A stretch of 64,000 nt of DNA from NCBI GenBank assembly GCA_025594325.1, contig JANHCV010000008.1, positions 1,116,001 through 1,180,000 of the forward strand. Direction: 5' to 3'. The notes under the pieces were generated by a model. The model ran no database searches. It was not told where the DNA came from and was given only the letters and a program-made list of their open reading frames with translations. The stretch's first letter is position 1, and every line of letters starts with the position of its first letter. Of the stretch, positions 29,497 to 37,917 are shown piece after piece. The stretch comes from Blastocladiella emersonii ATCC 22665. Taxonomy: Eukaryota; Fungi; Blastocladiomycota. The translations under genes were made by a program, and so were the position numbers.

Positions 29497-31713
29497 ATGT
29501 CGATGAATATCTTCAACGAAACGAGACAGAGCGGCTCGCAGTCATTCAGTAACGAAGATCTTGACGCCATCATCACTCAACTCAATTTGGTCATGCCTAC
29601 AAGCGCATCGCAAGCCGCAACGAAGGGTTACGTGGATCAAAAGGTCGCTGACGTTGTTGCTGGAGTTGCACCCTCCATCACGACCACAACCCCGCTCCAA
29701 ATCGTATCCAACAACGTGTCGCTCAAGGCAGATCCAACAGTGTTTGCAACGGTGGATTCGTCCCTCACAATCAAGTCAGGCGCGATCAACAACAGTCACT
29801 TGTCTTCTGGCATTGACGGCAGCAAGATTGCAGGGACGCTTGGTCTAAGTGCAATTCCAGACGTAAGCAGCAAAGTCACGTCACTGTCAGGCGCGGTAAT
29901 CGCCGACAACACCATCCCAAGTACCGCTTTGACCACAGTCCCAACTACCAAGCTCACTGGCACGCTCGCCGCGACGGCCTTTGCTGACAGGACCATAGCC
30001 AGTTCGCGATTGATCTCCGTGGATAGCAGCAAGCTGACAGGTGCAATCCCAAGCGGCCTGCTCAGTGTTCCTGACACGTCCGTCCTTACAGTCAGTGGCA
30101 GCAAAATCACTGGCACAATCCCTGCAACGGCGATCGGCGATAACTCAGTTACTGACGCAAAAATCACTGGGATCGAATGGTCAAAGGTCACTGGCGTGTC
30201 GGTCAGCGATGCTCTCATCACTGGAGTTTCAGCAAGTAAGCTCACTGGCACGCTCTCGCAATCTGCTCTGCCGCTCAGCAACGCATGGGCCTTCAGCAAC
30301 ACGACTGATACAGTCAGCTCAGTAACTGGCGCGTTGACGTTGTCTGGCGGACTTGGCATTGCGAAAGGGCTCAGCGTGGGTGGATCAGCAACGGTTTCAG
30401 GTACATTGACCGCGGCCAACGGCACAGTGACCTCGCACGTAGTAACCCTTGGCCAACTCAACTCTGCGATCGCCGGTGTGTCGCAGTGGGTCCCTTCAAA
30501 CGTCATTGCAGTCCGTAACACCACAGATTCAACATCATCTACCAATGGCGCGCTGACAGTGGCCGGGGGTGTTGGGGTAAGCAAGTCACTGAATGTGGGC
30601 GGAGCAACAACTGTCAACGGGCTGTGCAAAGTCAAAGCATCAACAAACGGTGGATCTCTACGCGTTTACAATACCACTGACGGCGGCGAGTGTGGCACCG
30701 CGTTCTATCGCAACGCAGCAGGTACAGTGACTACAACTGGCGATGTTTGGGTCATGGGCTTAAACTCATGGGGTGTTGGCGATCGCAATTTCGTGATTGG
30801 CTGCCACAACCAGAACGCACTGCTCACTCTCACAGCAGCTGACAAGTCGTGCACTCTGTCTGGTACGCTGACTACTCCAGGCGTCAGTTTCACCAACACG
30901 TCAGCATCGCCTTTCATCAAACTCAACAGCGGAGCCACTTCTGGTAGTTATATCGATTGGCAGGTAAATGGAGTCCGCGTGAACAACCTGTTCTGCGATC
31001 CCGTCACCAAAGTACTGCACATCAGCTCAGCGGACGCGAACGGCGTGTCAGTGTGTCCAAACGCAGGCAACTCGATTGGCATTGGTCAGCAACCTGATTT
31101 CAGCTACAAGTTCGCAGTGACTGGCGCATCAAAGTTTACTGGTAACCTTGATGTGACTGGAACAGTTTCTGCGTCAACAACACCCACTTTGTCAAACCAT
31201 TTGACCAACAAGTCTTACGTGGATACTGCGGTGGCTGCGGTCAGCGATCCGTCAATCAAATATGGTCAGCTGCTAATAAACAGTAACTCGATTTCATTCA
31301 GTAATGGATCTTACGTGTACGTCAATGGTGCAAACTCACAGGCAACGATTATCAACTCGTCTATTGGATCATTGCTCGCAGCAGGTGCTGCAAATGGACA
31401 GTGGACGGTGTCAACAAGCGGCTGGTACATGGTTTCCATGTTCAACTGGTACACTGTTGGATCAACAGTACCCGAACACACGGCCACGCAAACCATCTTC
31501 AACGTAACTGACAGCATGCCGGCAGGGAAAGATTCAGTATTCTGGCAAACGGTAAACATTGCAAAGTTCACAAGCAGCCAGTATATGTGCGGGAGCGGCG
31601 CAGTGTACCTTGAGGCTGGCAAACAGTACTGCTGTCTCTGGATGTGCAACAACCTCAGCGCAACCCTGACTCAGTCCGTTCACTACACGATCAACCTGTT
31701 CCTTCTTCGTTAA
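29497..31713 (+). CDS. Fiber or spike-like protein, 738 aa
   Basis: AATKGYVD and LTNKSYVD motifs; a TTPLQIVSNNVSL shaft-like unit; about six xSKLTGTL repeats; GALTVAGGVGVSKSLNVGG repeats; a C-terminal beta-rich head. Confidence 0.8.
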   Translation: MSMNIFNETRQSGSQSFSNEDLDAIITQLNLVMPTSASQAATKGYVDQKVADVVAGVAPSITTTTPLQIVSNNVSLKADPTVFATVDSSLTIKSGAINNSHLSSGIDGSKIAGTLGLSAIPDVSSKVTSLSGAVIADNTIPSTALTTVPTTKLTGTLAATAFADRTIASSRLISVDSSKLTGAIPSGLLSVPDTSVLTVSGSKITGTIPATAIGDNSVTDAKITGIEWSKVTGVSVSDALITGVSASKLTGTLSQSALPLSNAWAFSNTTDTVSSVTGALTLSGGLGIAKGLSVGGSATVSGTLTAANGTVTSHVVTLGQLNSAIAGVSQWVPSNVIAVRNTTDSTSSTNGALTVAGGVGVSKSLNVGGATTVNGLCKVKASTNGGSLRVYNTTDGGECGTAFYRNAAGTVTTTGDVWVMGLNSWGVGDRNFVIGCHNQNALLTLTAADKSCTLSGTLTTPGVSFTNTSASPFIKLNSGATSGSYIDWQVNGVRVNNLFCDPVTKVLHISSADANGVSVCPNAGNSIGIGQQPDFSYKFAVTGASKFTGNLDVTGTVSASTTPTLSNHLTNKSYVDTAVAAVSDPSIKYGQLLINSNSISFSNGSYVYVNGANSQATIINSSIGSLLAAGAANGQWTVSTSGWYMVSMFNWYTVGSTVPEHTATQTIFNVTDSMPAGKDSVFWQTVNIAKFTSSQYMCGSGAVYLEAGKQYCCLWMCNNLSATLTQSVHYTINLFLLR

Positions 31714-32837
31714 TATAGGATTGCGTTTGCGTATTTGATTGGAACTCGCCTCACTCGAGTCGAAGGCGCACGGCGATTAGGCGGTTGATAGGTTCGCCGG
31801 ACGACTGGTAATGGATTTTGCTGATCGCGGGGCGGAGGTGTGTACGTCTGCGTGTCAGTGATCACTTGGAGCTCGCTTCGACTCCAGAATCGCGAAACGC
31901 CATTTACTTTGTAGCTGGCGGTCGATATGCCAGTAGGTTTCCGCACCTCAGTGATCTCATAAACTTCTGTAGACCATAGTTTACTGTTCTTTTTGTCAAG
32001 ATCACTTTTAAACTGCACCTTGGTTCGAACTTTGGTCCCGACTTTGAGTAAGCCGTCACCAACGTCTCCTGGTTTTGTGTTCCGTGCCTTAACCTCTTCA
32101 AGGTGTGCCTTTGCATCACTTGCTGACATTTGATGAAGCTCGTCAGGCGACAGCCCAGTGGTTCGCTTTGTTAGACTGTTGATTGAGTCTTCACACTGCT
32201 GCAAATGACTTGGCCAATTCTTGGATCCTGTGCCATCCATCCACATGTTGAGGTGGCGTCGTACCTCTTTGTTCTTAGACTCAACCATGCCTTGTCCATA
32301 CGGTGATCCTGCACGGCCACGCACCATTGTCACGTTTGGAAGTTGCTCTATTGAGTTGAATTCTGTACCATTGTCACAGTGAATGACCAGCTTGGAGTAG
32401 CTGTACTTGGCAACAATGGCTTTGAACGCGTTCAAGCAAGAGCCGGCGGTTTTTGCTTTAAGTGCTGCAAGGTGAATGCGACGCGTTGCAACATCAATCA
32501 TGACCATCACGTAACGAAATGAGTTGAATTGGCGATTCTCGCCCCCAAAGTCCAATAGGTCGATCTGGAACACTTAACCAGGCGACGTCGCTGTAGTGCG
32601 TCGAATGTCCACCCGCTTTGGTGTTTGTTTGTAAAGCTGATATGTGGTTTGTTTCTTAATCCATTTGTCCACTTGCGCGCGGTACAGGTGCGCCATCTGC
32701 GATGGACGTTCGCGTTGGGCTGCTTCAAACAGGCCTTTGTAGCCAGTTCCAGGGTACTTTGTGTAGTATAGCGTCTGTAGAAACTTTTCCTGATCCTCAG
32801 TCAAAGGCATTTCATGTGGGTATTTCTCTGTCGGCAT
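31710..32837 (-). pseudogene. Polinton-type rve (DDE) integrase with one in-frame TAA at 32574-32576
   Basis: SPG*VFQIDLLD, HCDNGTEF and GMVESKN supply D-D-E. The C-terminal KVGTKVR...WSTEVYEI...SELQVI is Polinton-like. ORFs 32574-32837 and 31710-32573 are in one frame. Confidence 0.9.
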
Positions 32838-37400: not shown

Positions 37401-37917
37401 CGTCGTAGATGAACTTGTACTCGAGCACGATGATGTGGTACGAATGCTTCTCGCTGGTGGTGTATCCTGAAATGTTCATGGTCTCCTTATTGGCAAGCGG
37501 AAATTGATCAATGATCCAGTCCTGGATCTCACTCAAGGTCTTGTACTGGAGCACGCCATCAACCTTTTTGTCAAAGTCGAAATCAAAGTAGAGCTTCACC
37601 AGCTGACCGTCGCGGAACAGCTCACAGAGTTGCTTGTTTTGACCTTCACGGACCCACTTGCTGATCTTCTCGTTGGTCAGGTTTACGTACTTGAAGTAAT
37701 CCTTCTTCTTGCCCGCGGCGTCGGTGAACTGGCAGATGATCCCATAGGTGAAGCAATCGCCGTCCTCGTCAGCGCGACGAAAGGCAAGGTTTTGAGGGAT
37801 AACACCAATGTTTTCGCGGTGCGACTTGACAAAGATGTGGGCGTCGTATTCGCGGCTGTACTGGCGCGTTGAACCAGTCTGCTGCTTGTAGGCCTTGGGC
37901 GAGATTGAGGAGTTCAT
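34487..37917 (-). pseudogene. AEP primase-polymerase, PriCT-2 and UL9/origin-binding-like SF2 helicase fusion (~1143 aa), with a -1 frameshift near 37040-37057
   Basis: LYFDFD, HSYHII and DESVYSKHRNMK (PrimPol). FRDVAWWFKS...FYWGWASQW...YESLWE (PriCT-2) lies in the second frame upstream of the tracked start. Also IMSPLSL, VYIDECESLL, TVAGAVGLSY and QSLRRIR. Confidence 0.8.

Follow-up and report, generated by a model that had tools for sequence, protein, structure and literature searches.

Why would a young provirus carry a reading-frame break in each of three adjacent replication and integration genes, while its structural-side genes are open? The question is raised by a polinton-like provirus of 17,198 bp at 21615-38812 in a 64,000-nucleotide stretch of the genome of the fungus Blastocladiella emersonii ATCC 22665 (assembly GCA_025594325.1, contig JANHCV010000008.1, positions 1,116,001 to 1,180,000 of the forward strand). 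This whole stretch is the window, and all coordinates refer to it. A preliminary description of the locus had listed host selection for an immobilized but capsid-competent provirus, programmed recoding, chance, and assembly error as explanations. We consider the breaks to be the result of ordinary decay, or of the integration of a defective genome, with a probability of roughly 0.6, and the clustering of the breaks to be within what chance allows. The ends of the element suggested a further, more tentative proposal for its tyrosine recombinase.

Three broken genes in the replication and integration module

All three breaks were located in the assembly sequence at the sites given in the preliminary description. 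The rve (DDE) integrase gene (31710-32837, minus strand; PF00665, E 4.3e-8) has an in-frame TAA at 32574-32576, five codons ahead of the first catalytic Asp (QIDL), and the rest of its DDE triad is complete. The part upstream of this stop aligned to the N-terminus of the sole close-length homolog, a distant one, found in a word-index protein search. The tyrosine-recombinase-superfamily gene (32856-34361, minus strand; R..K-x-x-R..GH..Y) is interrupted by a TAG at 32946-32948, which is codon 472 of 501. Because this codon lies between K-x-x-R and GH..Y, the product would be without the His and the Tyr nucleophile. The third gene (34487-37917, minus strand) is a fusion of an AEP primase and a UL9-like superfamily 2 (SF2) helicase. 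Its primase frame stops at a TGA (37036-37038) and its helicase frame opens past a TAA (37058-37060), which places a frame change within 37039-37057.

A search with the helicase piece gave 225 relatives, and the figures reported here rest on the best 150 of these, of which 110 also matched the primase piece in the same protein. The herpes origin-binding (UL9) family was present in 15 of 18 replicase relatives scanned. A profile of the 110 full-length relatives covered the primase frame to its last residues and resumed early in the helicase frame. Since the two stops precede catalytic residues and the primase and helicase are fused in these relatives, each of the three breaks is predicted to inactivate its gene. 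The helicase also has an insertion of about 40 amino acids (aa) with Cys and His residues (36030-36150; zinc-finger-like) that is not in the homolog profile.

Loss of one GCAA had been put forward as the origin of the frame change. Two conserved residues on either side of it are 43.67 codons apart, whereas the homologs that could be measured have 46-64 (73 of 73). This suggests that several codons were lost rather than 4 nt, unless this divergent lineage is simply short there. The frame change lies outside any homopolymer; together with the short junction, this fits a true deletion.

Age and clustering of the breaks

The terminal inverted repeats (TIRs) of the provirus, 757 bp each (21615-22371, plus strand, and 38056-38812, minus strand), differ at a single position (22319/38108), as had been counted before. 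The provirus is a recent insertion. Used as a clock, the one mismatch corresponds to an estimated 11 substitutions per element (95% range 0.3-63), in keeping with the earlier figure of about ten. The replication and integration open reading frames (ORFs) amount to 6.07 kb, and the seven structural-side ORFs, all of them open as described earlier, to 7.23 kb and not to the 9 kb first given. With all 3 breaks in the former module, P was 0.095, or 0.26 if either module is counted; these module probabilities and those from the TIR clock are post hoc. The enrichment suspected in the preliminary description is therefore not established, in spite of the low clock probability (2-4%) for the two stops.

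These results are compatible with more than one course of events. The breaks could have arisen by ordinary mutation after insertion, and decay of endogenous polinton-like viruses (PLVs) is on record (PMC12721341). Alternatively, a genome that was already defective could have been replicated and integrated by the enzymes of a sister copy. TIR identity would reflect only the time since the ends were last copied or converted, with the clock reset at insertion or arm conversion, and lesions in genes that act in trans can thus predate the insertion. The present provirus would be unable to excise, replicate or move unaided.

Several observations weigh against such an undirected origin. By the TIR clock alone, the posterior probability of at least 2 stops in the module was 0.023-0.040, and that of at least 2 stops there together with none in the structural ORFs was 0.015-0.020; the indel comes on top of this. 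No signature of RIP-like mutation (repeat-induced point mutation), methylation or CpG depletion was found, and no sister copies were found among viral contigs (helicase and major capsid protein [MCP] queries) or metagenome contigs (helicase query). Missense changes add little. The helicase has Glu in place of the Walker A Gly found in 108 of 110 homologs, and Asn in place of an Asp found in 103 of 110; these two candidate sites (36692-36694 and 35636-35638, minus strand) and the TIR mismatch are all of the C:G>T:A type, and an earlier count of exactly one break per gene, correct for the three breaks themselves, may on their account be too low. However, the helicase is mismatched at 4 of 38 near-invariant columns, a number reached by 11 of 110 homologs; the missense signal is accordingly weak, and the changes may be lineage divergence.

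Alternative explanations for the breaks

If recoding were programmed, ribosomes would read through the TAA and TAG, and frameshifting or splicing would join the primase and helicase. The single break per gene would suit this scenario, as would the absence of TAG from the 12 listed gene ends and the host-type intron that ORF1 seems to carry. However, TAA closes 8 of the same 12 ends, and only 1 TAA and 1 TAG stand in frame in 4,424 codons, compared to 202 Gln codons. The primase frame has no XXXYYYZ slippery heptamer, the folding z-scores downstream of the three breaks (-0.04, 0.46 and 0.11) gave no indication of unusual RNA structure, and, in profile score, the best plain frame change exceeded 5 of 5 intron models for the replicase by 14-28 bits. 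The primase-helicase is an uninterrupted ORF in 13 of 16 related loci, the other 3 being cut by contig ends, and a stop or frame change was present in 2 of 159 recombinase loci of free relatives. Recoding thus failed on every test run (heptamer, structure, introns, stop usage and relatives); it is not supported, and we regard it as very improbable, a trick specific to this lineage being conceivable in that the relatives compared are distant. Two related candidates were also rejected: on inspection, GT-AG introns in the integrase and recombinase genes would remove conserved residues or shrink the Arg-His spacing from 30 to at most 18 residues, and a TAR-reassigned genetic code conflicts with the codon and gene-end counts just given.

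One or more of the breaks could instead be artefacts of assembly or polishing, such as alleles drawn from near-identical sister copies, and the provirus may then be intact. There is precedent for this: fragmentation of conserved genes in elements of Cafeteria was confirmed by no Sanger assembly (PMC8547959), the stops of a Hydrurus PLV were gone after error correction, and mis-polished endogenous viral elements in multiple copies gain substitutions and frameshifts (both PMC10120064). However, the two 757-bp TIRs differ by just 1 mismatch, the structural ORFs extend over 7.2 kb without a frame break, two conserved host genes of the window have clean reading frames once introns are allowed for, and the frame change, outside a homopolymer, resembles a multi-codon loss. 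An artefact is therefore rather unlikely in our estimation, and with chance it belongs to the leading options among those first listed. Host selection for an immobilized, capsid-competent provirus would have kept the capsid genes while the mobility genes were lost. Three genes were independently disabled by one break each with zero breaks in the seven structural-side ORFs, the clock probability for the stops is about 2%, and endogenous PLVs can serve in defense against giant viruses (10.1101/2025.10.09.676808). On the other hand, the 3:0 split is not significant (0.095-0.26), an element this young by its TIRs requires no selection for its capsid genes to be intact, a single replicase lesion would presumably have immobilized it already, and the known defense involves replication of the element (10.1101/2025.10.09.676808). 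No positive evidence for such selection was obtained and domestication is not established, so we judge this explanation improbable.

Terminal palindromes

Each end of the provirus bears an identical perfect palindrome of 26 bp, without a spacer and with the core CTTAAG, flush with the target-site duplication (TSD). The left copy (21615-21640) and the right copy (38787-38812) are candidate replicated hairpin-telomere sites. In 30 Markov simulations of the element no palindrome was this long, the best being 18 bp. The two cuts that known resolvases make in a palindrome are 6 bp apart, and the perfect palindrome at both ends here has the symmetric 6-bp core that the target of a hairpin telomere resolvase needs. 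These termini suggest that the genome of the free, working virus had hairpin or head-to-head ends. Cleavage by the rve integrase would then follow the CA that lies 13 bp past the symmetry axis; the enzyme would join that end to the target, and repair would copy out the palindrome, giving the full 26 bp at each proviral end.

A possible resolvase role for the tyrosine recombinase

Our tentative proposal is that in this element, as in many free PLVs and virophages, the tyrosine recombinase is a hairpin-telomere resolvase and not an integrase. By cutting the spacer-less palindrome, such an enzyme would produce a linear genome closed at both ends, which the primase-UL9 helicase would replicate without pPolB. 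The rve integrase would open the hairpin off-centre, which would leave the provirus with a complete resolvase site at either end, and direct release as a hairpin-ended genome would be possible. The proposal is drawn from sequence comparison, and we think the odds are somewhat against it.

The enzyme itself gave mixed indications. Its catalytic motifs align with those of PLV recombinases and make up the set of the tyrosine recombinase superfamily, and it has Lys at the H-x-x-R position, where His is usual in tyrosine recombinases and Lys is found in topoisomerases IB (PMC3558466). Phage-integrase clusters are among its language-model neighbors at 0.96, with about 120-130 of 256 features in common. 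Structure models had pLDDT values of 36 and 47, with the catalytic domain not resolved, and gave no Foldseek match at E<=0.001. The word-index protein search returned nothing for the recombinase domain and, among longer proteins, nothing for the primase. Three results count against a resolvase: the N-terminal part scored Z 5.5-6.0 to the core-binding domains of XerA, XerD and the Brujita integrase, a weak and alignment-driven likeness; there was no match to TelN, TelK, TelA or ResT in Pfam, the PDB or phage tblastn; and a profile of PLV recombinases failed to detect the window enzyme.

Free relatives were compared for the layout of palindromes and recombinases. Among 16 IMG/VR loci found through the replicase (L001-L016), 13 carry a tyrosine recombinase and 1 an rve integrase; a match at L014 was discarded when it proved to be an ATPase. 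In 4 of the 13, the longest palindrome of the locus sits 108-205 bp upstream of the recombinase. A wider set (L017-L175) had 159 loci, 153 of them with a full ORF, from which 89 representatives with less than 70% recombinase identity and at least 450 nt upstream were taken; up to 4 kb on each side was searched, and kinship was handled by the 70% dereplication alone. Perfect spacer-less palindromes of at least 24 bp were present in 23 of the 89 loci, compared to 0-7 in local shuffles, and those of at least 30 bp in 13, compared to 0-2. The palindrome that goes with the recombinase of L017 (identical to L004) is 70 bp long. A palindrome of at least 20 bp lay within 400 bp upstream of 9 of 89 recombinases and of 7 of 309 other ORFs (Fisher p=0.003, with three seed loci chosen after the pattern was seen). 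The palindrome arms of this set have in common a T-A-A at positions -10 to -8, with A-rich sequence up to -3. One contig (L075:1-5662) is in its entirety a perfect head-to-head palindrome, with its centre 697 bp upstream of the recombinase gene; it may be a hairpin end, a dimer junction or an amplification chimera.

The layout of palindrome and recombinase appears to resemble the telRL-type site of N15 and a phaeovirus (PMC13236599). However, 66 of the 89 loci had no such palindrome in the stretch examined, and PLV subtype 4 of Halocafeteria has palindromes although PLVs there are without the pair of RVE integrase and tyrosine recombinase (10.64898/2026.07.28.741278); both points count against a resolvase. 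The palindromes beside recombinases could also be operators or att cores. A resolvase proposal for PLVs or virophages was not found in the literature searched, with subscription journals outside its scope.

Comparison with known systems

The closest likeness is to endogenous PLVs and virophages of Halocafeteria seosinensis (10.64898/2026.07.28.741278), which likewise have palindromes in TIRs beside the TSD, with non-pPolB replication genes and RVE integrases, and for which a hairpin-priming model has been proposed. The differences are that palindromes there can be longer (52 nt, compared to 26 bp here), that the host is a bicosoecid, and that RVE integrase and tyrosine recombinase occur together in some virophages and not in PLVs, whereas both are found here in a PLV-type element. 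No resolvase role is proposed in the available portions of that paper. The mid-GC endogenous mavirus-like elements (EMALEs) of Cafeteria burkhardae (PMC8547959) are also endogenous and share TIRs, an rve integrase, a tyrosine recombinase and a long primase/helicase, and they have no pPolB. EMALEs are, however, mavirus-type virophages, while the element described here has a putative MCP of 419 aa, no protease match and a UL9-like SF2 helicase.

PLVs of chytrid fungi (Aquintoviricetes) are known as well, PLV-type A32 ATPases being reported from many chytrid genomes (10.64898/2026.06.19.733378), and the present host is fungal too. The likeness to those viruses lies in the type of ATPase, the MCP being without a firm match. 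The free PLVs and virophages L001-L016 have the same fused AEP-UL9-like replicase but at 19-23% identity; their recombinases have no profile-detectable homology to the window enzyme, and a palindrome, where present, lies inside the contig and not in TIRs. The resolvase systems N15 telRL, TelA and phaeovirus EVEc combine, as here, a perfect palindrome, a symmetric 6-bp core and an enzyme like a tyrosine recombinase or topoisomerase IB (PMC3558466, PMC13236599). They differ in that the palindrome here is at both proviral ends, that integration is by an rve integrase, and that the enzyme here matched no resolvase in sequence or fold.

Insertion site and gene content of the element

The provirus has TG...CA ends and a GC content of about 50-52%, compared to 60-65% in the flanks. 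It is bounded by 5-bp TSDs of CTCGA (21610-21614 and 38813-38817, plus strand). Because of the TG..CA ends and the 5-bp TSD, the insertion was probably made by the rve integrase. It split a decayed gene, which we take from its motifs to be a PIF1-like helicase (38813-40524, minus strand; the frame resumes at 21352-21614), and which is a multi-break relic in itself. The size of the element, its long TIRs, its TSD and its rve integrase are those of polinton-like elements of 15-25 kb. No Pfam match to pPolB or a cysteine protease was found among 11 element ORFs scanned (E<=0.1), so the element does not fall in Maverick-Polinton group 1. Neither PF21507 nor a protease was matched in the element ORFs; PF21507 was present in 4 related loci.

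The packaging ATPase gene (26458-27282, minus strand) is open, has Walker A/B and RH motifs intact and, as an A32-like ATPase, matched PF04665 (E 6.7e-10); the element is provisionally filed as a polinton-like virus. Its last codons hold a 9-base homopolymer (26473-26481), where an assembly slip could alter the exact C-terminus. This is the only firm family match among structural-type products, and the virion genes of the preliminary description, although open, owe their capsid labels to order, size and weak matches. The likely MCP gene (25188-26447, minus strand; 419 aa, open) adjoins the ATPase gene and scored weakly, at 3-5 bits, against ORFs of capsid size in relatives, with no match in Pfam, PHROG or PDB. 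A likely minor capsid (penton) protein (24102-24866, minus strand; 254 aa, open) is so named for its position, its size and a motif that we presume to be that of pentons; it stands in the expected place and had no match in the family libraries scanned.

Four further open ORFs encode an 86-aa amphipathic protein (24889-25149, minus strand), proteins of 533 aa (27308-28909, minus strand) and 109 aa (29151-29480, minus strand), and a fiber-like protein of 738 aa (29497-31713, plus strand), which is labeled from composition alone and whose stop overlaps that of the integrase. An intergenic 42-bp tandem repeat lies at 28938-29140. Near the left end, ORF1 (22478-23249, plus strand) has a host-like GC content of 59-65% and appears to contain a host-style GT-AG intron of 64 nt (22890-22953) with a CTGAC branch-like site, which suggests either nuclear transcription or a captured host gene. 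It is followed by a Cys-rich ORF of 77 aa (23385-23618, plus strand) that an in-frame TAA (23376-23378) parts from a short Cys-rich upstream frame; this ORF may have its own start downstream of the TAA, or the TAA may be a fourth break.

The recombinase and primase genes have a common upstream motif (34362-34480, with a copy at about 37918-38035, minus strand) that is likely a promoter. Structural-side ORFs (23259-29500) have T-tracts about 10-25 nt upstream of their ATG. The T-tracts and the separate motif upstream of the recombinase and primase genes (34362-38035) suggest two transcription classes.

Host sequences in the window

The host sequence on both sides (16600-20100 and 41400-62700) is an array of two interleaved paralog families, one F-box-like with about 6 copies, several of them broken, and the other of about 440 aa with 8 copies. 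The region at 9500-13160 holds two genes with short introns, one presumably folylpolyglutamate-synthase-like and the other a SUB2/UAP56 helicase, which scored 298 bits to yeast Sub2 and 277-278 bits to human DDX39; this one gene makes a fungal or closely related host likely. A 22-bp tandem repeat in 4-5 copies lies at 385-494.

Implications

As it stands, the finding is a modest one: the replication module of a young polinton-like provirus in a fungus is dead, and chance or assembly error suffices as an explanation. Should such a one-sided loss recur in many copies, it would indicate capsid domestication in progress. The larger stake is how PLVs and virophages replicate their ends without pPolB; the tyrosine recombinases of these viruses have been labeled integrases by default. 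The terminal palindrome flush with the TSD, together with the palindromes of free relatives, makes a resolvase role testable, and the free relatives offer natural intact pairs of enzyme and site.

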